The translations under genes and the position numbers were made by a program. A DNA stretch of 64,000 nucleotides from Deltaproteobacteria bacterium (GTDB lineage Bacteria > Myxococcota_A > UBA796 > UBA9615): positions 8 through 64,007 of the forward strand of contig PBPL01000101.1 of the NCBI GenBank assembly GCA_002724675.1, written 5' to 3'. Every line of letters starts with the position of its first letter. Position 1 is the first letter of the stretch. The notes under the pieces are model-generated. The model was not told the origin of the DNA, ran no database searches, and worked only from the letters and a program-made list of their open reading frames with translations. Shown piece by piece: positions 3,211 through 63,643 of the stretch.

Positions 3211-3235
3211 GGGCTAGGACCCCACAGACCTCAGA

Positions 3236-4735: not shown

Positions 4736-4739
4736 GGCC

Positions 4740-8590: not shown

Positions 8591-8596
8591 GATCCG

Positions 8597-9615: not shown

Positions 9616-9676
9616 CAGTTTCCTACTTGGGGGCTGTGCAAGCGCCCTGGTGCGCAATGAGGCTGGCCCCTGTGGG

Positions 9677-10351: not shown

Positions 10352-10362
10352 AGAGGCTCCCT

Positions 10363-11598: not shown

Positions 11599-11606
11599 GA
11601 CGTCTC

Positions 11607-13328: not shown

Positions 13329-13347
13329 GGTCCTCTCGCTCGAACAG

Positions 13348-17322: not shown

Positions 17323-17368
17323 GATGGGAAGCGGAGGGTACCAGCGGTCAACGGGGAAAGGAGGGGGC

Positions 17369-18336: not shown

Positions 18337-18576
18337 CAAGACTCCTGACTCCCAGCCGCGGGCTGTAGCCCATCCAGGCAAGCGGCAACGAGCGTCCTCT
18401 CCAGTTGCACCGAAAGTAGGCAACTAGAGTGGGGTCTCCGCAAACTGAAACCCCGCCTGAATCGCCTGTTGGGTTTACACGCGTGTGTGTGCCATTGCAA
18501 GACAACGGGGCCTTCCCAGCCCACCTTTGGTAGTCCTTCACCCGCCCTCGCAAGCAGCCATTGTACAATCGCGATC

Positions 18577-46296: not shown

Positions 46297-47649
46297 CTAG
46301 AGCTTGTGGATCCGACCGGCAGGAGAGTCAACTCCAGCCAGAGCATTACGACAGTCGACAATCGCCACTGATTTCCGCGCGACCAACTCCCAGTCGATGG
46401 CAGCATGATCCGCGGTCACCACGACACAATCAAAGGAGGAGAGCATCTCTTCGCCCAGCGACTCCGAAGCCAGCAACTCCCCCGAGACAAGCTCCAAGTG
46501 TGGCACATGTGGATCGTGGTACCGGATCTCAGCTCCCCGAGCGATCAGTAACTGAATGACATCGAGCGCCGGGCTCTCCCGAGTGTCGGACACGTTGGCC
46601 TTGTAGCTCACACCTAGGATGAGCACTCGACTGCCACGCACCGACTTGGAGTCCTCGTTCAGGCTCTCAGAGACCAACTCCACCACATGAGCCGGCATCG
46701 AGGTGTTGACCTCGGCGGCCAACTCGATGAACCGTGCGCGATAGTTGAGTGTCTTGAGGATCCAGGAAAGATAGTGCGGATCCACAGGGATGCAGTGCCC
46801 ACCCAGACCGGGGCCTGGATAAAACTTCATGAAGCCAAACGGCTTGGTGGCGGCGGCATCGATCACCTCCCAGGTGTCCAGGCCCAGCTTGCGACACATG
46901 AGCGCGACCTCGTTGACCAGCCCAATGTTCACCGCTCGAAAGGTGTTCTCCAGTAGCTTGGCCATCTCCGCTGCTCGGGTAGACGACATGGGGACAACCG
47001 TCGTCAAGAAGGTGTTGTACAGCGCGCAACCCACGGCAGTGCACGAATCGGTGATGCCGCCAACGAGACGCGGTGTGTTGCGGATATCGAACGAGAGGTT
47101 CCCCGGATCGACGCGCTCCGGGGAGAAGCAGAGGAAGAAGTCCTCACCGACCACCAAGCCCTTCTCTTCGAAGACGGGCAAGAGAAGCTCGTCGGTGCTC
47201 CCAGGGTAGGTGGTCGACTCCAGGACAATGAGTTGCCCAGGTCGAAGCCGCTCAGCCACTTCGCGGGCAGCCGTCAGAATGAACGAGATGTCCGGATCCC
47301 GCGTCTTGGATAGCGGAGTCGGCACGCAGATAGAGATCGCGTCCATCTCGGACAAATCATCGAAGCTCGCCCGGGGATGGAATCGACCCGACTGAAGGCA
47401 CTCCTGCAGGACCTTGTCGCTTACGTCGTCAATGTAGGACTTTCCCGCTAATAGACTGTCAATCTTTCGCTGATCAATGTCGTAGCCGGTCACATCGAGA
47501 CCAGCAGAGACCATGGTCATCGCCAGAGGAAGACCCACATAGCCCTGCCCGATGACACCCACTCGAGCCCCACCAGACTGAATGAGCCCAATCAACGCTG
47601 CGCTGGCATCCGTAGCTTGGTCGAGCGGCGTTGATTGATCAGTTCTCAT
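46297..47649 (-). CDS. Nucleotide-sugar dehydrogenase (UDP-GlcNAc/UDP-ManNAc 6-dehydrogenase-like)
   Basis: Rossmann motif VGVIGQGYVGLPLA, ICVPTP, and the catalytic region GLGGHCIPVDP. ATGA overlap with the upstream gene's stop. Confidence 0.85.
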   Translation of the reverse strand: MRTDQSTPLDQATDASAALIGLIQSGGARVGVIGQGYVGLPLAMTMVSAGLDVTGYDIDQRKIDSLLAGKSYIDDVSDKVLQECLQSGRFHPRASFDDLSEMDAISICVPTPLSKTRDPDISFILTAAREVAERLRPGQLIVLESTTYPGSTDELLLPVFEEKGLVVGEDFFLCFSPERVDPGNLSFDIRNTPRLVGGITDSCTAVGCALYNTFLTTVVPMSSTRAAEMAKLLENTFRAVNIGLVNEVALMCRKLGLDTWEVIDAAATKPFGFMKFYPGPGLGGHCIPVDPHYLSWILKTLNYRARFIELAAEVNTSMPAHVVELVSESLNEDSKSVRGSRVLILGVSYKANVSDTRESPALDVIQLLIARGAEIRYHDPHVPHLELVSGELLASESLGEEMLSSFDCVVVTADHAAIDWELVARKSVAIVDCRNALAGVDSPAGRIHKL

Positions 47650-49529: not shown

Positions 49530-50462
49530 TTACTCGAAGCCAATCAGCCAGATCGCCTGTCCACCGTACTGCCCAGACAGGTCCGTGCCCACGTAGGGGT
49601 TGGTCTCGGTGTTCTTGAAGAACTCCCAGTATCCGTACCACGAAGAGCCGGGGCCCGCCGCAGCCGAGACCTGGTTGATACCAATCTCGTTGGACAGCGT
49701 TCCAGGGGTGTTGTTCACGAAACCAGCGTGGGTGAACTCAAGCCCGTACTCAGACAGGGTCTGCTCGATCTCGGCAGCGCTGTAGCCACCGTCCACCGTC
49801 AGCTCCATGCCCTGATCGCTCATCGTGGTGACATCCACCAAGCCGAGGCTGAGGAAGTCGCCCATGCCACCATCGGTGATGGGAGTCAGCAGCGAGGGGC
49901 CGAAGTTGGCGCCGGCGAGGTCCAGCTCGGCGACATCGCAGTCGTCCGGGTTGGTCGCAGGATCGGAGATGTCGGTGGCCGACGTGTGATCGAACTCAAT
50001 GGAGCCCGTGCAGTTGTTGCAGCCTTCACCAGCCAGGATGCCGGGGCCGAAGGTGGCAGAGCCAGCGATCTGAATCCACTGCGTGCAGTTCAGGATCTGG
50101 GTTGCCTCGTTGTACTCAGCCCAGTAGTTGACACCGAACACGGCAGAGATGTCGGTAGAGGAGTCGTCCACGGGGACCGCTTCCATCTCGATGGAGAAGC
50201 TGATGGCAGCCAGCGCGAACTCAGCCGCGGTGTCGTCATCATCATCGTCGTCATCATCATCGTCGTCGCCGAGGTTGTTACCACCGTCGTCGTCGTCGTC
50301 ACCAGGAATGTTGTTGCCGTCGTTGTCAGTGTCACCGTCGATGGACGAGTCGCCACCATTGGCACCATCTGTGCGGGCATCACAGCCCATTCCAACCAAC
50401 GCAACACCCACAACCAGCGCCAACATATAGCTACTGAACATCTTCACGATAACCTTGAACAT
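49530..50462 (-). CDS. Asp-rich lipoprotein, function unknown
   Basis: ATG 50460-50462 preceded by GGAGGGAG. Lipobox LVGMGC. D/N/G-rich region including D5 and D12 runs. The remainder has no recognisable motif. Confidence 0.65.
   Translation of the reverse strand: MFKVIVKMFSSYMLALVVGVALVGMGCDARTDGANGGDSSIDGDTDNDGNNIPGDDDDDGGNNLGDDDDDDDDDDDDTAAEFALAAISFSIEMEAVPVDDSSTDISAVFGVNYWAEYNEATQILNCTQWIQIAGSATFGPGILAGEGCNNCTGSIEFDHTSATDISDPATNPDDCDVAELDLAGANFGPSLLTPITDGGMGDFLSLGLVDVTTMSDQGMELTVDGGYSAAEIEQTLSEYGLEFTHAGFVNNTPGTLSNEIGINQVSAAAGPGSSWYGYWEFFKNTETNPYVGTDLSGQYGGQAIWLIGFE
50232..50300 (-). repeat. GAY (Asp) codon tract encoding GDDDDDGGNNLGDDDDDDDDDDDD
   Basis: The plus strand reads GTCGTCATCATCATCGTCGTCATCATCATCGTCGTC..., a low-complexity trinucleotide tract inside the lipoprotein CDS. 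Confidence 0.9.
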
Positions 50463-50704
50463 TCGGGTCTCCCTCCACCTCGCATATACCGACCAGACCG
50501 GTTGCAGACACCCTGCAACACGAACCATCCAGCCCAGCTGAGTGCGAGCGGCGAGCGGTATGTACCCGAGAGCCGCGCGAAAGAAAAGTCCTTTTTCGAA
50601 CAAGCCCTACGCGAAACGGCAACAGGCATCGAAATCGGAAAAAACAAGAAGAGACGCAACTTCAAGACAAGGTCGACGCTGTAACCGATAGCGGCAACCG
50701 CAGC

Positions 50705-51991
50705 TCAGTCAACGCGAACCTGCCTGGGAGGCTCCTTCGACGCCGAGACCGCTCTGACCCGAGCCGTATCCAGCTGACCTCGACCAAACTCCGAGTCGAT
50801 CTCGCGTGCCAGCGAGAGCACGAAGCGAAGAGTTTGCTCGAGAGCGCGGGGCTCTACCGAGTCCAATCGGTCCTGGTGCGTGTGTAAGACCTCCGCAGCC
50901 CTGCCACGAACCAACGTAGTGAGCGTCACCGCCCGGTAGCCGGCCTCCGTCACCGGACCCGCATCGGTTCGCCCCACAAGGGCGACCTCGCCGACCCCAT
51001 CGAACTCATCGGACTGAGCGAGACGCTCCGCCAGAGCAGGCAGGCTTGGTCTATATGGCAAGCGGTCCCAACGCCCTTCTGAGCTGACGAAGTGCAGCTC
51101 CCCACGGCCGACGTCGTCTAGGTTGACGAAGAAGGTCGCGCGCCGGTCCAGAAGATGAGCGAACTGGCGCACGAACGCCTTCATGCCGCCCGAGTCCGCT
51201 TCACGCGCGCCGGTCGCGAGGACCCACAGCTCGCAGTGCTCCAGTGGTTCATTCACCAGATGCTCCGCGGCCACTAGAGCCACCGCGAGGCCAGAGCCGT
51301 TGTCGATGGCCCCAGCGGTGGGGACAGAGCGCCACCAATCGATGGCAATGAGAAGCGTGGCGACGTGGATCCAGGCCGCCATCAGCAGCGCCGCAAGCGC
51401 GACGGGAGAGGGTTCAGGAAGCGCCAACGCCAAGATGGAGGCGACAAGTTGAGTAGCACCACCGACGAGTACAATGGTGCCAGGGTGCAGGGGCACACCA
51501 CCGATTAATTCATAGTGAGCCAGTCGCTTGACCCAGGGACTGAAGAGCGTGGACGCACCGGCCACGTCCGCATGCGCCACGAGCACCACCCGACCCCGAC
51601 TGCCCGGCTGCCGAAGGCGCGCGACCATATTGCCCGTCAGCTGCTTCATGAGAAGCCAGCGCACCAGACGCGGGCGGCCGCGAAGCTCACCCCAAAAGGA
51701 CAGCAAGACCAACGAAGTCAGCAACACAGGCCCCAACCCGTTGCTCAGAAGGGACCAGAGCAGGGCCACGAGCAGAAGGGCCGAGTGTGTCCCCAGCAGG
51801 ACAGAGGTCTGAGGAGCGCACACCGCCCCCTCAACGACCGTGTCCATGCCCAGCCGGTCTAGACGCCCGGCAAGCGCAGCCTGGGCCATGCGCTCACCTT
51901 GAGAACCCGCCAGTCGACCAGGCAACTCGGTGACAACCCCGATGAATTCCTTCATGCGTTGGACCGTCGATGTTTGATGCGAGTGTGACAT
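50705..51991 (-). CDS. M28-family metallopeptidase-like membrane protein
   Basis: RVVLVAHADV... and GAIDNGSGLAVALVAAEHL...WVLATGAREADSGGMKAF resemble M28 metal-ligand blocks. Several hydrophobic helices lie N-terminal to and between these blocks. Confidence 0.5.
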   Translation of the reverse strand: MSHSHQTSTVQRMKEFIGVVTELPGRLAGSQGERMAQAALAGRLDRLGMDTVVEGAVCAPQTSVLLGTHSALLLVALLWSLLSNGLGPVLLTSLVLLSFWGELRGRPRLVRWLLMKQLTGNMVARLRQPGSRGRVVLVAHADVAGASTLFSPWVKRLAHYELIGGVPLHPGTIVLVGGATQLVASILALALPEPSPVALAALLMAAWIHVATLLIAIDWWRSVPTAGAIDNGSGLAVALVAAEHLVNEPLEHCELWVLATGAREADSGGMKAFVRQFAHLLDRRATFFVNLDDVGRGELHFVSSEGRWDRLPYRPSLPALAERLAQSDEFDGVGEVALVGRTDAGPVTEAGYRAVTLTTLVRGRAAEVLHTHQDRLDSVEPRALEQTLRFVLSLAREIDSEFGRGQLDTARVRAVSASKEPPRQVRVD

Positions 51992-52073
51992 TGTCGAGAA
52001 GAGTCTAAACCGTTCGCTATACTCTCAAACCCCAGGGGTCGGTCTTCGGCCCATTACCTCGGTTAGGACCTCG

Positions 52074-53498
52074 ATGAACCTCGTTGTCGACGAGGTTGTT
52101 TCGCTGCACAGCGACAACCTCTCTCATGTATTCCATGTACCCACATCATCGCTGTATGCGATGGACTCCGAAACCATGTCTATCCTCGAGGGTGCTCGTG
52201 ATGGACTGCATACCGATCAGAGCCTGCAGAAACTGACGGCGGACTCAGGTCTCGACCCGGCCGAGGTCGAGGACATCATCGACAATTTGGTGAAGTTGCG
52301 TCTCCTGGTCCCACCAGGCGAGACCGGCAACCGAGGCCCACTTGCTGACCGGCCGCAGAGTGGCCGGAGCATGGGCAATCTCGTCCTCCACGTGGCACAC
52401 ACCTGCAATCTGGGTTGCGGCTACTGCTATGCGGAGCAAGGCCTGTACAAGGGCAAAGCCACCCTCATGAACGAAGAGCGAGCCCATGAATATGTGGACT
52501 GGCTATTCGACCAGTGTGATCCGGAGACCAAGTCTCTCGGCATCACTTTCTTCGGGGGCGAGCCACTGCTGAATCTGAAAGTCATGAAGTCCGCCGCAGC
52601 CCATGCTCGAGAACGAGCGGACACGGACAACAAGTCTGTGCGGTTCTCCGTGACGACCAACGGCACCCTAGTCACCCCCGAGATCGTCGACTTTCTAGCC
52701 GCCATCGACTGTGTCGTCACAGTGAGTCTGGACGGCATCGGCAAGACCAACGATCGCCTGCGCCCGTTCCACTCGGGCCGCGGGTCCTACGACCTCGTCC
52801 TGGACCGCATCCAACCGCTCCTCGAACGGGGCAAGGTGGCTGCCCGTGTCACCGTCACCCGGCAGAACCTCGATGTCGTAGACACCGTCACGACGCTCCT
52901 CGAACGAGGCTTCGCTGAGGTGGGGTGCTCGCCAGTCGATGCGAAGAATCCTGCCTACGACCTGCGAGGGGAAGACTACGAAGTGCTGCTCGATGGCTTC
53001 GGCACACTCTCCCGACGCTACATCGACGAGGCCGTGCAGGGTCGTAAGTACGGCTTCTCTAACATCGCCAACATCATCAAGGCGGTGCACCAAGGGCACA
53101 ACAAGGACTACCCGTGCGGCGCGGGGCTCCAGATGGTTGCGGGTGCCCCCAACGGTGAGATGAGCCTATGCCACCGATTCGTTGGTGAGCCGGACTACGT
53201 CCTTGGCAACGTCAAAGAGGGTGGAATCGATAGCCATCGTCGGCTTCAGATCCTCGAGGACATCCAGCTGTCCGAGCGATCCGACTGCTCCAGTTGCTGG
53301 GCCCGTTACATCTGCTCCGGCGGATGCCACCACGTCAACTTCCTGTTCGAGGGAGACCCCAGCCGCACTTACCTGACCCACTGTGACTACCTCCGAGCTT
53401 GGTATCGCATGGGCCTCGAAGCCTACGCTGAGATCATGTCACGCAACCCCGAGTTCGTCGGGGAGTTCATCGACCCCGGTTTTCTGTGCAATCAGTAA
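52074..53498 (+). CDS. qhpD: Radical SAM / SPASM-domain peptide-modifying enzyme (QhpD-like thioether-forming maturase)
   Basis: CX3CX2C at C111/C115/C118 (CNLGCGYC, nt 52404-52427). Full 7-Cys SPASM motif: C348-x12-G-x4-C366 ... C405-x2-C408-x5-C414-x3-C418 ... C437 (nt 53115-53384). About 100 aa N-terminal to the core could be a peptide-binding (RRE-like) region. Sits immediately upstream of a QhpC-like peptide gene. Confidence 0.8.
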   Translation: MNLVVDEVVSLHSDNLSHVFHVPTSSLYAMDSETMSILEGARDGLHTDQSLQKLTADSGLDPAEVEDIIDNLVKLRLLVPPGETGNRGPLADRPQSGRSMGNLVLHVAHTCNLGCGYCYAEQGLYKGKATLMNEERAHEYVDWLFDQCDPETKSLGITFFGGEPLLNLKVMKSAAAHARERADTDNKSVRFSVTTNGTLVTPEIVDFLAAIDCVVTVSLDGIGKTNDRLRPFHSGRGSYDLVLDRIQPLLERGKVAARVTVTRQNLDVVDTVTTLLERGFAEVGCSPVDAKNPAYDLRGEDYEVLLDGFGTLSRRYIDEAVQGRKYGFSNIANIIKAVHQGHNKDYPCGAGLQMVAGAPNGEMSLCHRFVGEPDYVLGNVKEGGIDSHRRLQILEDIQLSERSDCSSCWARYICSGGCHHVNFLFEGDPSRTYLTHCDYLRAWYRMGLEAYAEIMSRNPEFVGEFIDPGFLCNQ

Positions 53499-53535
53499 CG
53501 AGAGCCTAAGATTGGCGCGAAAAGGAACCCAGCCC

Positions 53536-53832
53536 ATGAGCCGAATCAAGCCTCTGAACATTAAGGCAAGAGCTGTCGAAGCGAGCACAGACCGCGACGT
53601 GCGGGGCTACGCATTCGGCGACTGCTGCGCATCCTTCGCGCCGGGTTGGGAGGTGGGCACCCAAGACAACGCCGACCCCTGCCCGTGGAAGAGCGACCTC
53701 AGCCTCTGCTGGGGCACCTGCTACTGGATGGGTCAGGTGCCCGACTACATCTCGTACGGGGAGTGGCTCGACACCTGCGGCAACATTCAGAACGACTGGC
53801 GCAATCTCTGTACCATTCCGGACAACGGGTGA
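53536..53832 (+). CDS. qhpC: 98-aa Cys/Trp-rich precursor peptide, QhpC-like (gamma subunit of quinohemoprotein amine dehydrogenase; CTQ and thioether carrier)
   Basis: ATG 53536 preceded by AAAGGAA. Sequence MSRIKPLNIKARAVEASTDRDVRGYAFGDCCASFAPGWEVGTQDNADPCPWKSDLSLCWGTCYWMGQVPDYISYGEWLDTCGNIQNDWRNLCTIPDNG. Blocks C-x3-F-x-PGWEV, C-x3-C-x-W-x3-VPD and DWRNL match my recollection of Pseudomonas/Paracoccus QhpC. The Cys-to-acceptor spacings match the published crosslinks (see findings). Confidence 0.75.
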   Translation: MSRIKPLNIKARAVEASTDRDVRGYAFGDCCASFAPGWEVGTQDNADPCPWKSDLSLCWGTCYWMGQVPDYISYGEWLDTCGNIQNDWRNLCTIPDNG

Positions 53833-54908
53833 CGCTCATGCTCCAGCGCACGAACTCCTATATCTGCACTCTGGCCGCTCTCGTCGCGGCTGCCGTCTGG
53901 CTGCTCGCCCTGCCTCAGCACACAGAGGCGGCGGGCGCTCGCACTGCATGGGTATCTAGCAACCACATCCAGGTCATTGACCTGGACACGGCTCGGGTCA
54001 TTGGCCGGCTGCCGCTCTCCGAGTTCATCCACGACATGGACTTCAGCGTGGACGGCAACCGCGTGTACGTAGGCAGCAGCAAGGGGCTGCGTGTGGCCGA
54101 TGCCAACGAGCTCCGGTTTGTGCAGCAGGTGTCCACGAGCATGACCAAGGCCGTAGCGGTCTCCAAAGACGGCAGTCGCGTCGCAGCGATTCATCCTGGG
54201 GACCGAGAGGCGACACAGGCAGCCCGGAAAGCTGGCCTTCCCCTCCCCCCCGCCAAGATCACGATCTACTCGACGCTGGACATGAAGGAACAGAGTTCCT
54301 GGCACGTGCACGCCATGACATTCGATGTCCTGTTCGCGCCATCGAACGATCGGGTCTACGTGTTGGTACCCCCCGAGGGCATGGTCTATGTCCACGACTT
54401 GAGTGGGGCAGTTCTCGACACCATTCAGCTCGTACCGAGGAGCCCCGAGGGTTCCCACCAGGGAGCAATGCTGACCTGGATGGCGCTCTCGCCCGATGGC
54501 CGATCGCTGGTGGTCCCCGGCACAACCGCAGACCGATCGTTCGTAGCAGAGGTCGACCTGGGCAACAGACGACCCCTGGATGAACGCGTGGTCCACCAAG
54601 ATCTGGGACACAACCGGAGGATCCAAGGGCTGGCTTGGGACGATGACGGCAGTGGTGTTTACGTCACTGCAGTGAACTCCATGGTCAAGTTCAATGGTCT
54701 CGGTCTTCCCATCGCCTGGGAATCCATGCCGCTCAACTACGTCGACATCGAGCCCATCCCAGGCACCAACGAGAACGTCCTGGTGGCGCCCATCTTCTCC
54801 AAGTCCAACAAGAGCGGGGGGGTCGCCATCTTGGGCGAAAACGGCGAGTTCCTGAGAACGGTGGAGTTGCCCGACATGAGCCCCTACTTCGTGGCTGTCC
54901 GACCCTGA
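53829..54908 (+). CDS. qhpB: Periplasmic 7-bladed beta-propeller protein (QhpB-like beta subunit)
   Basis: GTG 53829 overlaps the precursor stop (GTGA); ATG 53838 is an alternative start. Signal peptide ...ICTLAALVAAAVWLLALPQHTEA-AG. Seven repeats of the pattern hydrophobic strand-D/N-x-turn...(S/D)xDGxRVYV, e.g. IQVIDLDTARVIG...FSVDGNRVYV, LRVADANELRF...VSKDGSRVAA, ALSPDGRSLVV, WDDDGSGVYV. Confidence 0.7.
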   Translation: MTLMLQRTNSYICTLAALVAAAVWLLALPQHTEAAGARTAWVSSNHIQVIDLDTARVIGRLPLSEFIHDMDFSVDGNRVYVGSSKGLRVADANELRFVQQVSTSMTKAVAVSKDGSRVAAIHPGDREATQAARKAGLPLPPAKITIYSTLDMKEQSSWHVHAMTFDVLFAPSNDRVYVLVPPEGMVYVHDLSGAVLDTIQLVPRSPEGSHQGAMLTWMALSPDGRSLVVPGTTADRSFVAEVDLGNRRPLDERVVHQDLGHNRRIQGLAWDDDGSGVYVTAVNSMVKFNGLGLPIAWESMPLNYVDIEPIPGTNENVLVAPIFSKSNKSGGVAILGENGEFLRTVELPDMSPYFVAVRP

Positions 54909-55900
54909 CCACACTCTGCCTACACGCGCCCGACCGGGCGCGGCTGACGCAACTTGAGCAAGCCTCGGACCTTCGTCGGTCGGAGGCTGCCTGGCTATCC
55001 AGTCTGCCCGACTACAGCCGGCTCTATTTTGGGGTCGAGTTCTGCGAGCACCTGCTTCCCAGCGCGGACGACGTGGAGGCCGCTTGCGACTTCTGCAACC
55101 GGCGTCAATGGAAGCTAACGCTGCTGACACCCTACGTAACCGACTGGGGGCTCGAGAAGATCGACCCACTCCTCCAGGCCCTAGACACCATGGCGCCCCA
55201 TGGCACCGAGGTGGTCGTCAACGACTGGGGAGTACTCCGCCAGGTAGCCAACCGCTCCAACGCAGACCTCTTGGTTGTACTGGGCCGAGGGTTGAACCGG
55301 ATGTTCCGCGACCCGAGAGTTCCCGATGTAGGTCCAGAACATCTGGGGGGAGACGCTCCACCGAGCGCTTGGCGTAGCGCGAGCCACCAGAGTCAGGGTT
55401 TCCGAACCATGCTCCGCTCGGCAGGCATCCAACGGATCGAAACGGACATGCCGATGCAAGGTATGCAGGACCTGGACCCCGACGAACAAGACCTGAAGCT
55501 AAGTGTTCACCTGCCCTATGGAATGGTGGCCAGCGGCCGCATCTGCATGATGAGCGCCCTTGGGCAGTCGGCTTCAGTGCGATTCCCCCCACCTCGCGCC
55601 TGCACTGCGCCCTGCCACGACTACACTTTGGAGCTTCGCGCGCCCTGGACGCGTCGAGCGGTTGGAGCAGGCCGGCTACCCCTGGTTGCAGAGGACAGCT
55701 TTCTGCCTCTAGACCACGTGCTCAATCGCCGTCGTAACGCGTTTCCAGCCCACGAGAATGACGACGCACCGAGGTTCATCCAGAAAGGCAACACCCACTT
55801 CTACTGCCTGGACGAGGAGAAGGTGGACAGTGCGCTGGACTGGGTCCACCGCAACCCCACAGCAGACCGCATCGTGGTAGCACCTGACGTGCCCATGTAG
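54905..55900 (+). CDS. Divergent peptidase-U32-family (TIM-barrel) protein, first of a tandem pair; probable CTG start
   Basis: The listed ORF starts at GTG 55073. The same frame is open back to 54902 and encodes TTLCLHAPDRARLTQLEQ...YSRLYFGVEFC, paralogous to the N-terminus of the next gene (QILCPVNSPEEVAPLVDAGADEFYCG), which is the typical U32 start. U32-like core KLTLLTPYV...EVVVNDWGVLRQV...GIQRIETDMP. Cys cluster C-x19-C-x3-C (GRICMM...RACTAPCH). Confidence 0.5.
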   Translation: MTTLCLHAPDRARLTQLEQASDLRRSEAAWLSSLPDYSRLYFGVEFCEHLLPSADDVEAACDFCNRRQWKLTLLTPYVTDWGLEKIDPLLQALDTMAPHGTEVVVNDWGVLRQVANRSNADLLVVLGRGLNRMFRDPRVPDVGPEHLGGDAPPSAWRSASHQSQGFRTMLRSAGIQRIETDMPMQGMQDLDPDEQDLKLSVHLPYGMVASGRICMMSALGQSASVRFPPPRACTAPCHDYTLELRAPWTRRAVGAGRLPLVAEDSFLPLDHVLNRRRNAFPAHENDDAPRFIQKGNTHFYCLDEEKVDSALDWVHRNPTADRIVVAPDVPM

Positions 55901-55928
55901 GCTTGCGAGCCCTAGGACCCAGAGCCCC

Positions 55929-57035
55929 GTGCAAATCCTTTGCCCCGTCAACAGCCCCGAAGAGGTCGCTCCGCTTGTGGATGCAGGGGCGGACGAGTTC
56001 TACTGCGGCCTGTTCCCCACAGAGTGGTACGAAAAGTGGGGTCGTGGGAGCTGGCCTAACCGGCGCGGACCAGGCCCGGCCAACATCAGCAAGATTGACG
56101 ACCTGGCGCGGCTGGCAGACAGCGTGCACACCGCAGGCTCCGGTGGGCCCAACCAGCGGCGAGTTCCACTGTTCGTTGCGCTAAACCAACAGTTCTACCC
56201 AGACGACCAGGCGGACTTCCTCCTGGGGATCGCTCAGGACCTCCAGAGCCGCTCCGCTGTGGACGCCTTCATAGTGAGTGACCCCGGCTTCATGGGCCTC
56301 TTGAAGACTGAGATTCCGGAGGCGCGAGTCTTCTCCTCCACGGTGTCTGTTGCAACCAATGCTCAGGCGGTCCGGTTTCTTGCGGACTTGGGATGCTCCC
56401 GAGTCATCCTGTCCCGTCATCTGCACCTGGCCGAGGTCGAGTCGCTGCAACAATCCGTCCCCGATGTGGAGCTGGAGGTCTTCCTGCTCAACGACAACTG
56501 TTATTTCGAGGAAGGCTTCTGCAGCACGACACACACCATGCCGGGCTTCGGTGTCTACTGCATGACACCGTGGGAGCTGAGAGTCACCCGCGATGATCAG
56601 GGGGGGCAGGGTCTATCCGATCCCGAGGAGCGAGCTCGCTGGGACTTTCTCATCGACGAGCACCGACGCTTCCTGGGCAATCTGTCGCACCGGGGTTTTG
56701 GGGGCGGTCGCGCAGCAGTTCCGCTCGGACCATGCGGACTCTGCGCGATCCCCAAGCTCATGGACCTGGGCATCCACAGCGGCAAGATCGTGGGTAGGGA
56801 GGCCAGCCTGTATCGAAAGATCCGCTCTGTTCAGTCCGTCCGATACGTACGGGACAGCTATCGAGAAACCGGAGATGCTCAAGAGGCAAAGAAGAAGGCA
56901 GTAGAGCTTCGTGCTGACCCACGGGGTTGCAGTAGCGGCATGTCCTGTTACTACCGTAGCGCCCGAGACCGCGACCTCATCCCCCTGCCCTCCCGGAGCA
57001 CCAAGAAGCCGACTCGAAACGCGACCAAGCCATGA
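55929..57035 (+). CDS. Peptidase-U32-family protein, second of the tandem pair
   Basis: GTG start. MQILCPVNSPEEVAPLVDAGADEFYCG, VALNQQFYPDD...DAFIVSDPGFMGLLK, VSVATNAQAVRFLADLGCSRVILSRHLHLAEV and FLLNDNCYFEEGFCSTTHTMPGFGVYC (CX6CX12C), plus PCGLC. This is the U32 architecture with Fe-S-type cysteines, as in the UbiU/UbiV/RlhA family. Confidence 0.65.
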   Translation: MQILCPVNSPEEVAPLVDAGADEFYCGLFPTEWYEKWGRGSWPNRRGPGPANISKIDDLARLADSVHTAGSGGPNQRRVPLFVALNQQFYPDDQADFLLGIAQDLQSRSAVDAFIVSDPGFMGLLKTEIPEARVFSSTVSVATNAQAVRFLADLGCSRVILSRHLHLAEVESLQQSVPDVELEVFLLNDNCYFEEGFCSTTHTMPGFGVYCMTPWELRVTRDDQGGQGLSDPEERARWDFLIDEHRRFLGNLSHRGFGGGRAAVPLGPCGLCAIPKLMDLGIHSGKIVGREASLYRKIRSVQSVRYVRDSYRETGDAQEAKKKAVELRADPRGCSSGMSCYYRSARDRDLIPLPSRSTKKPTRNATKP

Positions 57036-58927
57036 CCTCAAAGGGGTCCCCTCCCCCCTCTCCAGCCTTTGTGCCCGAGGCCATACGGCCGGACTCGGTG
57101 CGCCCAGCCGACACGGAGGTGTCGGAGCACACGAAGGTCCCCTGGAAGCGCGTCTTCAGCTACCTACTGCCCTACTGGAAGGCCGAGGTCCTTCTGGTGC
57201 TCGGTATGGCGATCGGTATTGGGCTCTCCTTGGTCTACCCGTTCCTGCTGCGAGAAATCGTCGACGATGTGGTGGGCCCCGGCGCCTCGGCTGCGACCGA
57301 TCGATTGTTACCCCTTGCCGCCCTCATCCTGGCCGCCACGGCCGGCGGGGTCGTGCTCTCTGCCGCTGCCGCCTGGCTCCAGACCTGGGTCACAGCACAC
57401 GTCCTCGTTGATCTCCGCTTGGAGTTGTTCCAGCACCTTCAGTCATTGGGCCCTGCTTTCTTTGCCCGCAAGCGACTGGGGGACGTCCTGTCTCGCATGG
57501 GAGGAGACCTCGCCGAGCTGCAACAGGTGGCCACCGGAACTCTCATCAATGTCATTGGGTCGGTCGTCACACTCGTGGGAGTCATCACGGCGCTCACCTT
57601 CCTCCAGCCCCTATTGCTTGCCGTAGGCGCGGCGTTCATCCCCATCGCTATCGGCTTACTGGTGCTGCTTCGGCCCATCATCCGGCGCCTGTCTTTGAGG
57701 ATTCGAGAGCGCAACGCTGACATCTCCCATCAGATGTTGGAGAGCCTAACCGGCCTGCGCACGGTCCTGGCCCACGGGCTTGCCGACCGAGAAGCGAAGC
57801 GGTTCGAGGGCAACAACTTGGCGTTGATCCGAGCCGTTCTGCTCTTCCGCCTGTGGAACTCGGGATCAGCCGGCGCCTTCCAGATCCTCGTCACGGCGAA
57901 CCTCCTGGCTGTCCTCGTCGTTGGTGTCTGGCTGATGCGAACGACTGCGATGACCCCAGGCGACCTCGTCGCGTTCCTCCTGTTCCAACAGCGACTCTAC
58001 GGTCCGCTGCAGGGGCTGGCGGGCACTTATGTCAATCTGCAGCGGGCAGCAGCGTCAGTGGCGCGAGTCTTCGAGTTGCGCGACGCCAAGCCCCTGGAGG
58101 CTGCCGACCCGGCCCTGTCCCTCGACGAACCCTTCCAGGGACGCGTCGAGTTCGACAAGGTTTCGTTCCAATACGCTCCCGGACGACGGGTTCTGACCGA
58201 CCTGACGATGCGAGTGGATCCCGGAGAGACCGTGTGCCTGGTCGGCCCCTCAGGAGTGGGCAAGACGACCGTCCTCGAGCTCATGTTTCGATTCGTCGAC
58301 CCCGATGAGGGACGCGTTCTACTGGACGGCATCGATCTTCGAGAACTGGACCTCGACAGCGTTCTGCCCCAGGTCGCGTTGGTAGGCCAAGAGCCCGCGC
58401 TGTTCGATGGCACTCTACGCGACAACCTCCGATGGCTCCGGCCGGACGCGCCAGAGGCCACCATGAACGAAGTGGTCGAGCAAGTGGGCTTGTCGGAGTT
58501 CGTCCGCAGCCTGCCCCAGGGGCTGGAGACTCCTCTCGGCGACCGCGGCATTCGCCTGTCCTCTGGGCAGCGCCAGCGCATCGGGCTCGCCCGCGCGCTT
58601 CTCCGAGAACCCGTCCTCTTGGTGCTGGACGAAGTCACCTCGGCCCTGGACTGGGAGAGTGACCGGCTCGTCGTCGAAGCACTCCAAGCTCGGCGAGCCT
58701 CGGGCTGCACCACCCTGATCATCTCCCACCGCCTGCATCTTGCCGTCGATGCAGACCGAGTCGTCGTACTAGAAGACGGTCACGTGGCGACCACAGGCAC
58801 CCACCTCACCCTGCTCGACCAGGGCGGACTGTACCGCAGACTTTGGGACTTGCAGCGAGGCGCGGCAGAGGCCAGGAGGTCCCCCAGCAGCGGCAGAACA
58901 CACCCCACCGAGGACGGCTCGGCGTGA
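57032..58927 (+). CDS. qhpF: ABC exporter, fused TMD-NBD half transporter (QhpF-like)
   Basis: ATGA overlap with the U32 stop. Six-helix TMD followed by Walker A GPSGVGKTT, signature LSSGQRQRIGLARAL and Walker B LLVLDEVTSALD. Confidence 0.8.
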   Translation: MTSKGSPPPSPAFVPEAIRPDSVRPADTEVSEHTKVPWKRVFSYLLPYWKAEVLLVLGMAIGIGLSLVYPFLLREIVDDVVGPGASAATDRLLPLAALILAATAGGVVLSAAAAWLQTWVTAHVLVDLRLELFQHLQSLGPAFFARKRLGDVLSRMGGDLAELQQVATGTLINVIGSVVTLVGVITALTFLQPLLLAVGAAFIPIAIGLLVLLRPIIRRLSLRIRERNADISHQMLESLTGLRTVLAHGLADREAKRFEGNNLALIRAVLLFRLWNSGSAGAFQILVTANLLAVLVVGVWLMRTTAMTPGDLVAFLLFQQRLYGPLQGLAGTYVNLQRAAASVARVFELRDAKPLEAADPALSLDEPFQGRVEFDKVSFQYAPGRRVLTDLTMRVDPGETVCLVGPSGVGKTTVLELMFRFVDPDEGRVLLDGIDLRELDLDSVLPQVALVGQEPALFDGTLRDNLRWLRPDAPEATMNEVVEQVGLSEFVRSLPQGLETPLGDRGIRLSSGQRQRIGLARALLREPVLLVLDEVTSALDWESDRLVVEALQARRASGCTTLIISHRLHLAVDADRVVVLEDGHVATTGTHLTLLDQGGLYRRLWDLQRGAAEARRSPSSGRTHPTEDGSA

Positions 58928-59658
58928 ACAAGTCCACTACAGACCGAGGTCCTCTGGTCGCTGTCGTGGACAGTGGCGTGGCAGCCGGACACCCGCACTT
59001 GGAAGGCCTACAGTTGCGTTCCTTCTCCCTCGAGGGAGCGGGATCACCACTGGACCGACGGCCAGAGGCATCGGACCGGACAGGGCATGGCACTGCGTGT
59101 GTTGCCGCCCTATACCGGGCGAATCCCCGGGTGGAGGTCCTAGCAATCCGTCTCTTGGATGAAGAGTTGAGAACAACCGCCGAGGCTGTGGCCGAGGCGA
59201 TCCGCGTCGCTGCCGACGAAGGAGCGAAGGTCATCAACCTCAGCCTGGGCTCGGGCAGGGCCGAATCGAGGTCCCTACTGGAGGAGGCCGTGCTGTACGC
59301 CAGGGAGCGGTCAGCACACTGTGTGGCTGCCGCCCACCCAAAGGGACGGCAGCTTTGGCCAGCCGACCTGCCCAGCGTGATCTCAGCGATTAGTCACCGC
59401 AGTTGCCCTCTCAGCGACCTGTATCGTGTGGAGGGGCCACTGCCCCGGTTTCTCGCGCACGGCTATCCACGGCCCATCGAGGGCCGGCCCCCCACCGCCA
59501 ATCTGTACGGCCCATCGTTTGCCGCCATTCACTTGTCAGCAAAGGTTGCGGAGATTCTGACCAGAGACTCCCAGTTGGCATTCTCCGACATCGTCACCTG
59601 CCTGGAAGAGAGCTGTTCCGGCTCCTGGAATGAAACCAGCACTCACCCTAGGTCTTGA
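58924..59658 (+). CDS. qhpE: Cytoplasmic subtilisin-like (S8) serine protease (QhpE-like leader peptidase)
   Basis: GTGA overlap with the ABC stop. Asp block LVAVVDSGV, His block DRTGHGTACVAAL, Asn region VINLSLG, Ser block YGPSFAAIHLSA. No signal peptide. Only 244 aa. Confidence 0.7.
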   Translation: MNKSTTDRGPLVAVVDSGVAAGHPHLEGLQLRSFSLEGAGSPLDRRPEASDRTGHGTACVAALYRANPRVEVLAIRLLDEELRTTAEAVAEAIRVAADEGAKVINLSLGSGRAESRSLLEEAVLYARERSAHCVAAAHPKGRQLWPADLPSVISAISHRSCPLSDLYRVEGPLPRFLAHGYPRPIEGRPPTANLYGPSFAAIHLSAKVAEILTRDSQLAFSDIVTCLEESCSGSWNETSTHPRS

Positions 59659-59683
59659 CCGACCCCTCCCAGCCCGATAAACG

Positions 59684-60562
59684 GTGTACATGTCTCCCGC
59701 ACCTGACGAACCGAGCTTCGAAGACGCTGAAGAGGCGTTCGAGCGTGGCGACGTCGAGACTGCCCTGGCGATCTGTGAGGGCTACCTCGGCGAAGACGAG
59801 TCCAAGGCACCCGTCGAGGCCCTCTACTTAGCTGCAGAGTGTCTCCTGGAGCTCCAGGAGGTCACCGAAGCGACCCACATGATCGACCTGGCCTTGAACG
59901 AGCACCCAGACGACGCCGTGCTGGTACACACGAAAGCCATTTGCTGCTTCGAGCAAGCCAAGCTCGAAGATGCTCGGAAGGGCTTCGAGAGAGCCGCGAA
60001 CCTGGACGACCAACTGGGGGAGCCGCTGTTCTACCTAGGCATCCTGACCGAACGAGACGGTGACTTCGGCGCAGCAGACCGCCTCTTTGAGCACGGTGTT
60101 CGCTTGGACCCCGAGAACCTGTCCCTGCCGGTCGATTGGCCGGCCGACAAGGTTCGCCAGATCTTCGATGAGGTGGTCGAAGAGATGCCAGATCCTTTTG
60201 GCATGTGGCTGGCTGGTCTGCGCGTGGACGTGGCCGACCTTCCCGACGACGCTGCTCTGGCTGCCGCAGAGGGACCCATCTCCCCACTCGTTCACTGTCT
60301 CTTTGACGGGCCAGCACCAAGCCCTCCGGCGGAGAAGACGGACCCCGACGAGTGGCTTACGACCCACCCGAGCCGCGTCCGACTGTTTCGACGCAACCTG
60401 GGCAAGAGCGCCCACGACGAGTACGAGCTACACCGAGAGATACTCGAAGCTCTCCTCTGGGAATCCATGGAGTTCCTGGGCCTCGACGAGGGACACCTGG
60501 CCAAGCTCGGTATCCTCGACGACGAGGACGACGAGGCGCTGCTCCCGGGCAAGCCCCACTAG
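59684..60562 (+). CDS. TPR-repeat protein fused to a degenerate Zincin_1 (DUF1025-like) domain that lacks the HExxH histidines
   Basis: N-terminal TPR-like helices (AEEAFERGDVETALAICEGYL..., AICCFEQAKLEDARKGFERAANLD..., LFYLGILTERDGDFGAADRLFEHGVRLDP). The C-terminus VRLFRRNLGKSA...REILEALLWESMEFLGLDEGHLAKLG aligns with the ...VLHEIGHHFGLDEEDL..LG family motif, but W/E/F replace the His ligands. 25 nt after qhpE-like, and the last gene before a strong hairpin. Confidence 0.55.
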   Translation: MYMSPAPDEPSFEDAEEAFERGDVETALAICEGYLGEDESKAPVEALYLAAECLLELQEVTEATHMIDLALNEHPDDAVLVHTKAICCFEQAKLEDARKGFERAANLDDQLGEPLFYLGILTERDGDFGAADRLFEHGVRLDPENLSLPVDWPADKVRQIFDEVVEEMPDPFGMWLAGLRVDVADLPDDAALAAAEGPISPLVHCLFDGPAPSPPAEKTDPDEWLTTHPSRVRLFRRNLGKSAHDEYELHREILEALLWESMEFLGLDEGHLAKLGILDDEDDEALLPGKPH

Positions 60563-60563
60563 T

Positions 60564-60586
60564 CTCAGATGGGCAGACCATCTGAG
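60564..60586. terminator. 9-bp perfect hairpin between convergent genes (candidate bidirectional terminator; 3' boundary of the qhp-like operon)
   Basis: CTCAGATGG-GCAGA-CCATCTGAG, starting 2 nt after the TPR gene stop and 24 nt before the stop of the minus-strand lipoprotein gene. No U-tract. Confidence 0.45.
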
Positions 60587-60609
60587 TCGCGAACAGGCTG
60601 GGTAGGTCG

Positions 60610-62031
60610 TCAGCCGCCGCGAGTCAGTATGATGGTGACTTCGTAGTATCGATTGGCAGCACTCGCTTGCTCATCCACATCAGACACCACGACCTGCCAC
60701 GTACCCGAGGAGAGCTCCTGGGAGACCACAGGGGACTCAGCTGCCATGTCCCAGGGCAAGGGGTCGCCGGCCTCACCTTCGGGGTTGATCAGGTGGACTT
60801 GCGGCGCCGTAGTCTCGCCATGGAGGGTGGATGCGAACGAAACATCGAGGACATCGCCTGACTCAGCTTCCAGGGAGTAGCGATCCTGGTCACCCGCACT
60901 GCCAATCCGGCCCCAGTACGTAGCCTGAGCCACGCTCTCACCCGAGCTAAAGGACAGGCCGAGCGCCATTGCCGTCTCCGTGGTCTCGTTGGGTTCCACC
61001 TCGACCGCCGGCATGTCGGCTGGATTGTTCTTCGCCGCGTGCAGGAAGTACCAGTGATCAAAGCCCCCGGAGTCACCAGCGTCCAGGACTTCCAACATGT
61101 AGAAGCCCGTCTCTAGGACGGGTATCCAGGCCCTGGTCTCTGTCTCCCAGTTCATCCCATCGTAGGTCTGGATGAGGCTCTCACCGTCTTCCAGGTAGAC
61201 ATTGACCCGAGTAGTTCCGGCACTCCCGCTGTTGGGGAACCCGTACAGGCGGAGAACCTCCGAGCTGATCACGGGGACGGAAATCCAGTCGCGGTCTTTA
61301 GACGGGGCAAGGGTGCCACCAGCCGTGTAGTTCACCGCGTACTCGTCCACCCCCCAGACCACAGCATCTTCCAGTTGATCGTTGGGCTCGCCAACGTGCA
61401 TGGGATTGGACTCCGAGCCCAACTGAGAAAAGCTAAGCGTGTACTGGCGATCGTCCCCGGAGCCCGGGACGACAACGCTGGGGTCGTTGGCCCAGCTGCG
61501 CCGATCTTCCAGGCTGAAGTAATAGAGATCTGTAGACGGGACCGCCGAGTAAAAGCGTGAATTGGGCTCCACCGAAGGGACGCGGCTGTAGTTGTCGTTG
61601 TAGCCGATCTCGTCCCCATTCCCGTCGTAGTACACAATCACCGTATCCAGGGACTCGGAGTCCTCAGCATCCGCCGTGACTAGGAACAAGTCCCCCACTG
61701 TTCCGTAGAAACGAAACCAATCCACATCATCTGCTGGGGCGATGTGCAGCTGGACCGTATCCCCGTACTCAATTAGCTGCGCCTCATCGGGAAAATTGTT
61801 GCGATCCCCCTCGACGCACTGGCCAAGTTCATCGCAGATCTCGAGCCCGGACTCGTAGTCACAGTCCAGATCCTCGTCACAAACAGCCTCTGGCTCACCT
61901 CCTCCTGGAGGAGCTACAGGCGCGTCGTCATCCTCCTCAGCCTCATCCCCACAGCCCCAGAGGCCCAGCCCTAGAGCGAGCGTCAGCAACAACCAGCGAG
62001 TACGTTGGCGAGAGAGGGAATGAAGTGGCAT
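60610..62031 (-). CDS. Secreted lipoprotein with a Cys-rich acidic linker and repeated pre-peptidase C-terminal (PPC)-like domains
   Basis: ATG 62029-62031. Lipobox LGLGLWGC. CDEDLDCDYESGLEICDELGQC. Repeated D.DW/Y..F....GD.l....(a)...DtV..lY...G pattern (DDVDWFRFYGTVGDLFLVTA...DTVIVYYDGNGDEIGYND, DQDRYSLEAESGDVLDV). Confidence 0.6.
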   Translation of the reverse strand: MPLHSLSRQRTRWLLLTLALGLGLWGCGDEAEEDDDAPVAPPGGGEPEAVCDEDLDCDYESGLEICDELGQCVEGDRNNFPDEAQLIEYGDTVQLHIAPADDVDWFRFYGTVGDLFLVTADAEDSESLDTVIVYYDGNGDEIGYNDNYSRVPSVEPNSRFYSAVPSTDLYYFSLEDRRSWANDPSVVVPGSGDDRQYTLSFSQLGSESNPMHVGEPNDQLEDAVVWGVDEYAVNYTAGGTLAPSKDRDWISVPVISSEVLRLYGFPNSGSAGTTRVNVYLEDGESLIQTYDGMNWETETRAWIPVLETGFYMLEVLDAGDSGGFDHWYFLHAAKNNPADMPAVEVEPNETTETAMALGLSFSSGESVAQATYWGRIGSAGDQDRYSLEAESGDVLDVSFASTLHGETTAPQVHLINPEGEAGDPLPWDMAAESPVVSQELSSGTWQVVVSDVDEQASAANRYYEVTIILTRGG

Positions 62032-62092
62032 GAGACGAACTCCAGCGAGTGGGGGCCGTCCTGGCCGGCGCCCGGGCATTCTCGCCTACAGT

Positions 62093-63643
62093 CTACTCCC
62101 ACTCAATGGTCCCCGGGGGCTTGCTGGAGATGTCATAGACCACCCGATTGATGCCGCGGACCTCGTTGATAATGCGGTTCGAGCAACGCGCCAGCACCTC
62201 CCGCGGCATATCAAACCAGTCCGCTGTCATGCCATCGGTTGAGGTCACGGCACGCAAGGCACACACATTCTCGTAGGTGCGTTCGTCACCCATCACCCCC
62301 ACCGTCTGCACCGGCAAGAGGACAGCAAATGCCTGCCAAATGGAGTCGTAGAGGCCTGCTCGACGGATCTCGTCGATAAAGATGTGGTCGGCTCGCCTCA
62401 AGACGTCGCAACGATCCTCGGTGACTTCACCCAGGACCCGCACACCGAGTCCGGGACCTGGGAACGGATGGCGCCCCAGCTTTTCGGAGCCGATGGCTAA
62501 CTCAGCCCCCAGCAAACGCACCTCGTCCTTGAACAGATCGCGCAGCGGCTCGAGGAGCTCGAGCTTCATGTGCTCGGGCAAGCCACCCACATTGTGATGG
62601 CTCTTGATGGTCGCGGAAGGACCACCCTTGGGCGACACACTCTCGATGACGTCGGGATAGAGCGTACCCTGGGCCAAGAAGCGCGCGCCATCCACAGAGT
62701 CGGCTGAGTCCTCAAAGACCTCCACAAACACACGACCGATGATCTTTCGCTTCTGCTCGGGGTCCGTCACACCCTCTAGGGCGCTGAGGAATCTGTCCGA
62801 GGCATCCACATGTCGAAAATCAATACCTCGGAAGTCCTCAAAAAAACCACAGACCTCGGACGCCTCTTCCCAACGAAGCAGGCCGTTGTCGATAAAAATG
62901 CAGGTGGCCTGAGAGCCTATGGCCTGGGCAAGAAGCGCTGCGACGACGGTGGAGTCCACACCACCAGACAAACCCAGGATGACCCGAGAGTCCCCGACGA
63001 CCCGACGGATGCGATCGACCTCCGTCTCGAGGAAGGACCCCATGGTCCAGTCCGGTCGACATCCACAGACATCGACCACGAAGTTCCGGAGGATCGCCCC
63101 CCCTTGGGGAGTGTGCGCGACCTCGGGATGAAACTGCACCCCAAACATGCGGTCATCATCTGAAGCCATGGCTGCAAAAGGCGAGTTGCCGCTGTGGCCC
63201 ACCGACTGAAATCCATCGGGAAGCCGAAGAACCTTGTCACCGTGACTCATCCAAACCTGGAGCCCCGCCTCGTCAGACACCCCTCGCAGGAGACGACTGT
63301 CGCCCTGGGGAGTCAGCTCGGCATGACCGAACTCACGCTCATTGGAAGGCGCAACCTCGCCACCGAAGAGGTGAGTCAAGAGCTGCATGCCGTAGCAGAT
63401 ACCCAGCACCGGAACCCCGAGATCCACATCGGCACGCTCCAGCCGAGGTGCCCCCTCGGCATAGACAGAAGCGGGACCGCCGCTCAGAATCAGGCCCAGA
63501 AGTTCGTCCGACTCCCAGTCCTGCGCCGGTTGTGTATATGGGCGGACCTCGCAGTAGACGTTCTGCTCACGGATCCGGCGAGCGATCAGTTGGGTGTACT
63601 GGGAGCCGAAGTCGAGGATCAAGATCTTTTCGCGCTTGGCCAC
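62093..63643 (-). CDS. guaA: GMP synthase (glutamine-hydrolysing)
   Basis: GATase domain ([33 protein letters not shown]), ATP-PPase loop [10 protein letters not shown], and the C-terminal [11 protein letters not shown] 63641-63643 preceded by AGGAGA. The listed ORF extends 243 nt further upstream with no homology. Confidence 0.93.

Follow-up and report, generated by a model that had tools for sequence, protein, structure and literature searches.

How could an enzyme of the quinohaemoprotein amine dehydrogenase (QHNDH) family be matured, and relieved of its electrons, without its dihaem subunit? This question is raised by a tightly packed operon of eight genes, all with intact open reading frames (ORFs), on the plus strand (52074-60562) of a 64-kb stretch of contig PBPL01000101.1 from a Deltaproteobacteria bacterium (GenBank assembly GCA_002724675.1), placed by GTDB in Myxococcota_A; the whole of this stretch is called the window below. 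The operon shares with QHNDH (qhpABCDEFG of Paracoccus denitrificans and Pseudomonas putida; structures 1JJU, 1JMX and 1PBY) the Cys, Asp/Glu and Trp pattern of the gamma subunit, a radical SAM/SPASM maturase, a subtilisin-like leader peptidase, an ABC exporter, a predicted seven-bladed propeller and the gene order D-C-B, but it differs in having neither the dihaem alpha subunit QhpA nor the flavoprotein QhpG, in carrying a pair of U32-type genes, and in a gamma subunit with two extra invariant Cys residues and a distinct C-terminus. Because the two-haem subunit is absent and an O2-independent type of hydroxylase pair takes the place of the flavin oxygenase, the operon looks like an undescribed haem-less branch of the QHNDH family. 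We give a probability of about 0.6 to the reading that it encodes a periplasmic gamma/beta relative of QHNDH, an amine dehydrogenase with a cysteine tryptophylquinone (CTQ) cofactor, whose electrons would pass to a carrier encoded elsewhere. A haem-less gamma/beta quinoprotein in need of another electron acceptor had been put forward in the original prediction, and the counts of gamma subtypes, the clade formed by QhpD, an alpha remnant in sister clusters and the lack of a linked carrier gene all support it.

The 98-residue gamma precursor is recognised by the NCBIfam model NF037958 (QH_gamma; 63 bits against a cutoff of 50) and by Pfam PF08992 (E 1.6e-10). Its pairs C30/E39, C49/D54 and C62/D70 align with the thioether pairs C7/E16, C27/D33 and C41/D49 of the structurally known subunits (1jmx_G and 1jju_C), and C58/W64 aligns with their CTQ pair C37/W43; all eight residues that mark a QHNDH gamma subunit, namely four Cys, the Glu, Asp and Asp acceptors and the CTQ Trp, are conserved. 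Across 28 diverged members of the same gamma subtype there is no variation in the CTQ Trp, its partner Cys, the thioether residues or the Asp equivalent to the catalytic base; the subtype is further distinguished by the invariant C81 and C92 and by a C-terminal LC[TV][IV]PD motif (LCTIPD in the window), features that the other gamma types lack. The subtype is small (36 clusters at 90% identity, with roughly six 50%-identity representatives scoring above 90 bits among 1.84 billion proteins), and it is found in a marine Myxococcota-like clade, in Acidobacteriota, in Gemmatimonadota and in Candidatus Glassbacteria. Two tandem gamma precursor genes are present in each of the Gemmatimonadota- and Glassbacteria-type clusters L069, L092, L110 and L114.

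A radical SAM/SPASM enzyme, a protease and an ABC exporter assembled around a small precursor, which in some relatives is duplicated, also follow the cluster logic of ribosomally synthesised and post-translationally modified peptides, and the original prediction had allowed that the caged peptide might have a non-enzymatic role; in that case the product would be exported for signalling, metal binding or antibiosis, with the propeller as an accessory. The precursor core is, however, conserved over its full length and not hypervariable, the CTQ Trp, its partner Cys and the catalytic-base Asp do not vary among the 28 sequences, a secreted propeller gene always follows the gamma gene in related loci, and the alpha remnant of sister clusters points to descent from a multi-subunit enzyme. 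With the catalytic residues, the secreted propeller and, in relatives, a FadL-like channel all conserved, we do not favour a purely peptide product and regard it as very improbable.

The loss of the alpha subunit is best seen by comparison. Related loci, 119 in number (designated by L and a number), were gathered from genomes and metagenomes and annotated by phmmer. None of the 36 distinct loci with the window's gamma subtype contains qhpA, and among loci with at least 2 kb of upstream sequence the gene is found in 0 of 20 of this subtype, spanning several phylum-level lineages, as against 16 of 17 with the other gamma type (Fisher p = 1.3e-9). The latter loci, from Blastocatellia, Terriglobia, Syntrophobacteraceae, Desulforhabdus, Desulfobacterales and metagenome-assembled genomes (MAGs) labelled Clostridia, are nearly always ordered QhpA-QhpD-gamma-beta-...-ABC-S8, with qhpA nearly always directly upstream of qhpD. 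Within about 10 kb of any locus of the window's subtype there is no credible CXXCH-containing ORF or c-type cytochrome motif, and in seven loci the Pfam-annotated genes include no member of a cupredoxin or cytochrome family. A QhpD-gamma-beta trio with the haem-less gamma subtype was also seen on two high-GC metagenome contigs (L111 and L113), where hydroxylase, exporter and protease genes were not found nearby.

The remaining qhp functions are recognisable in the operon, at a distance from the described enzymes that leaves its beta, QhpD and QhpE proteins under the NCBI equivalog cutoffs. The QhpD-like protein, encoded directly upstream of gamma, has TIGR03906 as its best NCBIfam match (E 1e-111; 373.8 bits against a cutoff of 453) and carries a CNLGCGYC motif together with SPASM Cys motifs; the leader peptidase matches NF049966 (E 1.7e-37; 128.9 bits against a cutoff of 165), and the exporter, with both ABC_membrane and ABC_tran domains, is inferred to move processed gamma to the periplasm. 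The exporter start overlaps the stop of the U32 gene, and the exporter occupies the same slot in QhpA-containing clusters, with which the operon shares the order of its QhpD-, QhpE- and QhpF-like genes. The putative beta subunit is confidently predicted as a seven-bladed propeller, and its fold matches QHNDH beta as well as the heavy chains of aromatic amine dehydrogenase (AADH) and methylamine dehydrogenase (MADH). In a neighbour-joining tree the QhpD proteins of haem-less-subtype clusters form a clade of their own, apart from those of all QhpA-containing clusters, and the corresponding beta subunits are closer to one another than to other betas. The acidobacterial clusters have a second, diverged propeller paralogue between beta and the U32 partner, which in L023 is 24% identical to the first beta.

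A direct trace of the lost subunit is preserved in Acidobacteriota. Three acidobacterial clusters (L023, L026 and L033) encode, at the position of qhpA, a secreted protein of about 300 residues that matches alpha domain IV only (PF09100, 26.8-31.5 bits against a cutoff of 25) and aligns with QhpA C-termini in hhalign at 96.8% probability (E 2e-10). None of the three contains a CXXCH motif, and therefore the cytochrome domain appears to have been truly lost within this gamma lineage. In the marine clade, including the window, there is no detectable alpha remnant. No candidate remnant other than the acidobacterial proteins reaches the Pfam cutoff for domain IV. Proteins with immunoglobulin-like (Ig) domains upstream of gamma in L115 and L119 match the alpha-remnant profile weakly and were rejected as alpha subunits; the same applies to proteins of L069 and L110 that precede the tandem gamma genes and combine a weakly domain-IV-like region with a type IX secretion sorting tail.

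In the window itself, a dihaem cytochrome c alpha subunit (PF09098 with domains II-IV) is not found. The original prediction had reported no CXXCH motif in any credible ORF of the operon or its flanks, and a six-frame scan of positions 50000-62500 bears this out, with none in any stop-to-stop frame of at least 60 residues. The nearest near-motif that it named, CSGGCH in the SPASM domain of the QhpD-like protein, is indeed present at 53313, although a second one had been overlooked, CTAPCH at 55601, which lies within the U32-partner gene and belongs to the conserved Cys motif of that gene. Across the window as a whole, frames of at least 60 residues hold just two CXXCH motifs, at 12363 and 25182, and both were rejected as cytochromes c; the first, the only one within a real gene, sits in the Fe-S protein NuoG, and the second in an 83-residue frame that has no gene support. 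Neither phmmer with the QhpA of L008 as query (TIGR03908, 336 bits against a cutoff of 274) nor the profile of the haem-less alpha remnant gives any match in the window. The flanking lipoproteins (49530-50603, 47646-49397 and 60610-62079) were also compared by hhalign with the alpha remnant and with QhpA C-termini and were rejected as diverged alpha subunits, with probabilities of at most 0.5% where the positive control gave 96.8%. The missing CXXCH alone says little, since only about 0.02 motifs would be expected by chance in 3711 residues (2.6% of shuffles contain one); its meaning comes only from the related clusters.

These comparisons bear on a competing explanation, in which the operon belongs to an ordinary alpha-beta-gamma QHNDH and a dihaem alpha is encoded elsewhere in the genome. 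The search reached over the window and the locus flanks, all the other qhp functions are present in the operon, and in three Blastocatellia loci (L018, L031 and L044) the maturation genes stand apart from the structural genes. Such a displacement would, however, have to affect alpha alone, with beta remaining linked to gamma, and it would have to have left 0 of 20 loci with qhpA in their flanks across several phylum-level lineages, when 16 of 17 loci with other gamma types keep the gene in the same locus. The invariant changes peculiar to this gamma subtype, the separate QhpD clade and the haem-less remnant at the qhpA position in Acidobacteriota likewise argue for a true loss of the cytochrome domain. 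We therefore consider a distant qhpA unlikely.

The second departure from QHNDH concerns the hydroxylation of the gamma Trp. In canonical systems both oxygen atoms come from O2 and are inserted by QhpG, an FAD (flavin adenine dinucleotide) monooxygenase. A search made without a QhpG reference query found no family of FAD-binding proteins or monooxygenases among the operon proteins (Pfam and NCBIfam) or in the Pfam annotations of seven related loci, and the operon carries a U32 pair instead; neither the missing QhpG nor the U32 pair had been noticed in the original prediction. A 494-residue Rossmann-type ORF at 25619-27103 was considered as a displaced QhpG and rejected, as it gave only faint matches to CrtD and carotenoid isomerases and lies 26 kb away.

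The first member of the pair has a U32 domain (PF01136) and matches the NCBIfam models of TrhP and UbiU, in both cases under cutoff; a PDB sequence search gave no match. Its Cys residues 191, 198, 211, 269, 272, 334 and 340 do not vary among 59 homologues; they include the presumed 4Fe-4S motif C191-X6-C198-X12-C211 with C269 and C272, to be compared with CX6CX16CX38C in UbiU (PMC6747719). The partner has four invariant Cys in the arrangement CX166CX18CX3C, with the first Cys far upstream as in UbiV, where the motif is CXnCX12CX3C (PMC6747719) as against CXnCX18CX3C here. It is too diverged, unlike UbiV, to be recognised by Pfam or NCBIfam, the latter of which has no model for the family, and a PDB sequence search also found nothing, but in a profile-profile comparison it matches the neighbouring U32 family at 94% (E 1.2e-7). 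Because of this match, its fold and its Cys motif, it is tentatively placed with the U32 family.

The partner gene also holds the one irregularity of the operon. Public and mechanical gene calls both start it at GTG 55073, which yields 275 residues and loses the first conserved Cys, whereas a conserved N-terminus (LHAPDR...YFGVEFC, with the invariant Cys47) runs in frame from about 54905. Upstream of the GTG this frame contains no ATG, GTG or TTG, which leaves the near-cognate CTG 54905, overlapping the beta stop (cTGa), as the only plausible initiation codon. Judging from the conserved frame, the start is miscalled and the true one lies upstream of GTG 55073. The lack of a canonical start codon is what could be said for a decaying remnant with no functional product; against it stand eight intact ORFs, invariant catalytic and Fe-S residues, and a layout retained at 45-60% protein identity in many marine MAGs and metagenomes. 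Invariant catalytic residues, an ever-present beta gene and a conserved layout make decay and the non-enzymatic peptide alike unlikely, and decay is scarcely credible.

The U32 proteins UbiU-UbiV, TrhP and RlhA are needed for O2-independent hydroxylations, and the oxygen donor of UbiU-UbiV is prephenate (PMC6747719, PMC10990095). They share with the window's pair the U32 domain with its invariant Cys and the adjacency of two genes, and by analogy we infer that the U32 protein here would be an O2-independent hydroxylase acting on the gamma Trp; its presumed substrate differs from theirs in being a protein-bound Trp and not a quinone precursor or an RNA base. The pair is present in many QhpA-containing clusters as well, and therefore the exchange of QhpG for U32 proteins is independent of the loss of alpha. 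In these clusters (L008 and L049 from Syntrophobacteraceae and Desulforhabdus, and many from Blastocatellia) the pair likewise stands between beta and the ABC exporter and the maturation genes are ordered as in the window, but they have a bona fide QhpA (TIGR03908, 336 bits), the other gamma subtype and a QhpD of a different clade. Those of Syntrophobacterales differ further in an additional NrfH-like, membrane-anchored multihaem cytochrome, seen in L008, L049, L076, L083 and L087, which suggests that electrons pass to the quinone pool in QhpA-containing Syntrophobacterales and Desulfobacterales. Clusters with the pair stem both from soil Acidobacteriota and from MAGs whose labels denote typically anaerobic groups. 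The pair also occurs away from qhp genes, in L006/L007, where it adjoins an arylsulfotransferase in a Vicinamibacterales MAG, and at about 20 other loci; the family therefore probably serves other substrates too.

The lack of a linked acceptor gene in any locus could also mean that a gamma/beta enzyme reduces O2 directly, with no protein acceptor. CTQ oxidases of the LodA/GoxA kind are known (PMC11951088), the operon comes from seawater metagenomes and a complex I operon is present in the window, all of which are compatible with an oxidase. A small caged subunit resting on a propeller is, however, the architecture of the dehydrogenases QHNDH, MADH and AADH and not of the single-chain LodA/GoxA; no large CTQ chain and no LodB/GoxB flavoprotein is found among the operon products, and the CTQ would here sit on a 98-residue precursor. 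An O2-independent type of hydroxylase for cofactor synthesis suggests, moreover, that the system functions where O2 is scarce. Direct reduction of O2 is in our view improbable, a shade more so than a distant qhpA.

A haem-less dehydrogenase would have a functional parallel in MADH and AADH (1MG2, 2H3X). Their cofactor is tryptophan tryptophylquinone (TTQ), formed from two Trp residues and not from Cys and Trp, and their light subunit is held together by disulfides instead of thioethers and matured in the periplasm by the dihaem protein MauG; mau clusters include a linked carrier gene, mauC, but no carrier gene is linked to the window operon. A Trp-Trp light subunit with six disulfides, MauG and a linked cupredoxin gene are all absent from the operon.

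The gene content, the conserved residues, the folds, the separation in phylogeny and the absence of qhpA nearby are direct observations, and from them the following chemical scheme is constructed step by step. The cytoplasmic steps would begin with the caging of the gamma precursor by the QhpD-like radical SAM enzyme through the thioethers C30-E39, C49-D54 and C62-D70, and the U32 protein and its UbiV-like partner, both with Fe-S clusters, would act as a heterodimer that replaces QhpG and hydroxylates Trp64 twice without O2, possibly with prephenate as oxygen donor, as in UbiU-UbiV. The QhpE-like protease would then cut the leader and the QhpF-like exporter deliver gamma to the periplasm, where it would bind the Sec-exported propeller, the C58-W64 link would close and CTQ would be formed by oxidation in the absence of alpha haems. 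A disulfide would probably join C81 and C92, stabilising a tail that is otherwise covered by alpha. The mature enzyme is expected to oxidise primary amines, and reduced CTQ may hand its electrons directly to a soluble carrier encoded elsewhere, which we liken to the transfer from MADH to amicyanin and from AADH to azurin; the heavy chains of both share the propeller fold. The more specific proposal, that a two-subunit CTQ enzyme needs neither haem nor O2 to make and use its quinone, the U32/UbiV-like pair dihydroxylating a protein Trp, the final oxidation taking place without alpha haems and the electrons leaving from an exposed gamma, is offered only tentatively, at somewhat less than even odds. 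In relatives (L004, L015, L016, L090, L093, L100 and L103) the protease gene is followed by that of a FadL/TodX-like protein of about 510 residues (PF03349, 34 bits in L090), an outer-membrane channel absent from the window's operon; it fits substrate uptake for a periplasmic enzyme, with a hydrophobic amine as substrate.

Several points weigh against a haem-less gamma/beta dehydrogenase. Both the C81-C92 disulfide and the stoichiometry of the subunits are conjectural, and U32 enzymes are not known to modify proteins. The QhpD- and QhpE-like proteins score under their equivalog cutoffs. The reach of the qhpA search, which stops at the window and the locus flanks, leaves room for a distant qhpA or another partner; the qhp genes of L018, L031 and L044 are confined to maturation (QhpD, the U32 pair, ABC exporter and S8 peptidase), apart from a gamma gene in L018, with no alpha or beta gene nearby, and therefore a qhp system can be split across the genome.

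Table 1. Coordinates of the operon genes, their neighbours and features of related loci.
Feature	Sequence	Coordinates	Strand	Match or remark
Complex I (nuo) operon	window	about 3200-18600	-	
Ser/Thr protein kinase fused to FGE-sulfatase domain	window	21082-22857	+	formylglycine-generating enzyme-like
Putative lipoprotein, 357 aa	window	49530-50603	-	long poly-Asp run, no Pfam match
Membrane-anchored M28 peptidase, divergent	window	50705-51991	-	Pfam Peptidase_M28, 53.8 bits
QhpD-like radical SAM/SPASM maturase	window	52074-53498	+	TIGR03906; Pfam Radical_SAM, Fer4_12, SPASM
Gamma subunit precursor, QhpC-like, 98 aa, haem-less subtype	window	53536-53832	+	NCBIfam QH_gamma, PF08992
Secreted seven-bladed beta-propeller, 356 aa, taken as beta subunit	window	53838-54908	+	fold
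UbiV-like partner of U32 protein	window	54905-55900	+	331 aa if CTG 54905 is the start
U32-family Fe-S protein, UbiU/TrhP-like	window	55929-57035	+	Pfam Peptidase_U32 (PF01136), 121 bits
ABC exporter, QhpF-like	window	57032-58927	+	Pfam ABC_membrane, ABC_tran
Subtilisin-like leader peptidase, QhpE-like	window	58924-59658	+	NCBIfam NF049966, Pfam Peptidase_S8
TPR-repeat and Zincin_1 protein	window	59684-60562	+	Pfam TPR families; Zincin_1, 34.6 bits; no evident signal peptide
Perfect 9-bp hairpin without U tract	window	60564-60586	+	directly 3' of last operon stop
Convergent lipoprotein, 489 aa	window	60610-62079		
Secreted protein of about 300 aa at qhpA position	L023	4394-5518		acidobacterial
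Secreted protein of about 300 aa at qhpA position	L026	4623-5552		acidobacterial
Secreted protein of about 300 aa at qhpA position	L033	4421-5509		acidobacterial
Second propeller paralogue	L023	8593-9729		acidobacterial
Tandem gamma genes with upstream protein with type IX secretion tail	L069	915-1583		tandem-gamma type
Tandem gamma genes with upstream protein with type IX secretion tail	L092	931-1599		tandem-gamma type
Tandem gamma genes with upstream protein with type IX secretion tail	L110	921-1673		tandem-gamma type
Tandem gamma genes with upstream protein with type IX secretion tail	L114	387-1139		tandem-gamma type
QhpD-gamma-beta trio	L111	4203-7259		
QhpD-gamma-beta trio	L113	3676-6724		
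U32/partner pair away from qhp genes	L006/L007	10001-12018		
NrfH-like cytochrome	L008	9330-9869		
FadL/TodX-like protein	L090	15645-17165		
FadL/TodX-like protein	L004	14638-16197		

The boundaries of the operon (Table 1) agree with those first described. Upstream, the divergent M28-like gene leaves a gap of 82 bp when read from ATG 51991 (118 bp from the start in public gene calls); its position is kept in L004, L011-L013, L016, L090 and L093, only in the marine/Myxococcota clade, and it is absent at the acidobacterial clusters compared. Downstream, the operon is bounded by the hairpin and the convergent lipoprotein gene. The region around the hairpin (60555-60620) folds at -28.3 kcal/mol (z -2.6), the terminator scan does not call it, and neither promoter nor terminator predictions across the operon exceed in number those for shuffled sequence. 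The TPR/Zincin_1 gene closes the operon in the marine/Myxococcota clade (L004, L011-L016, L090, L093, L100 and L103), and the putative lipoprotein two genes upstream is kept across the marine clade. Identical copies of the operon are found on TARA and other seawater metagenome contigs, and close relatives of the window carry the label Myxococcota. The remainder of the window consists of housekeeping genes, such as the nuo operon, PNPase, Ffh and glycosyltransferases; it also includes a protein kinase fused to an FGE-sulfatase domain.

In a limited literature search, accounts of QHNDH were found to describe only the haem-containing, QhpG-dependent enzyme, and neither a link of U32 proteins with QHNDH or tryptophylquinone nor a description of U32-type, QhpA-containing qhp clusters was found. 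The operon is of relevance to both protein-derived quinone cofactors and U32 chemistry. In the current model of CTQ biogenesis, the haems of the alpha subunit are proposed to carry out the last oxidation of dihydroxy-Trp (PMC7876137), and a lineage without these haems represents a direct natural test of that proposal. A haem-less gamma/beta form would tie the architecture of QHNDH to that of the TTQ dehydrogenases, and it raises the question of which periplasmic carrier marine Myxococcota-like bacteria use in amine oxidation. The U32 pair in the place of QhpG predicts an O2-independent route to tryptophylquinone and, if this is true, U32 chemistry would be extended from quinones and RNA to proteins, the gamma subunit being the first protein substrate of this family of hydroxylases.

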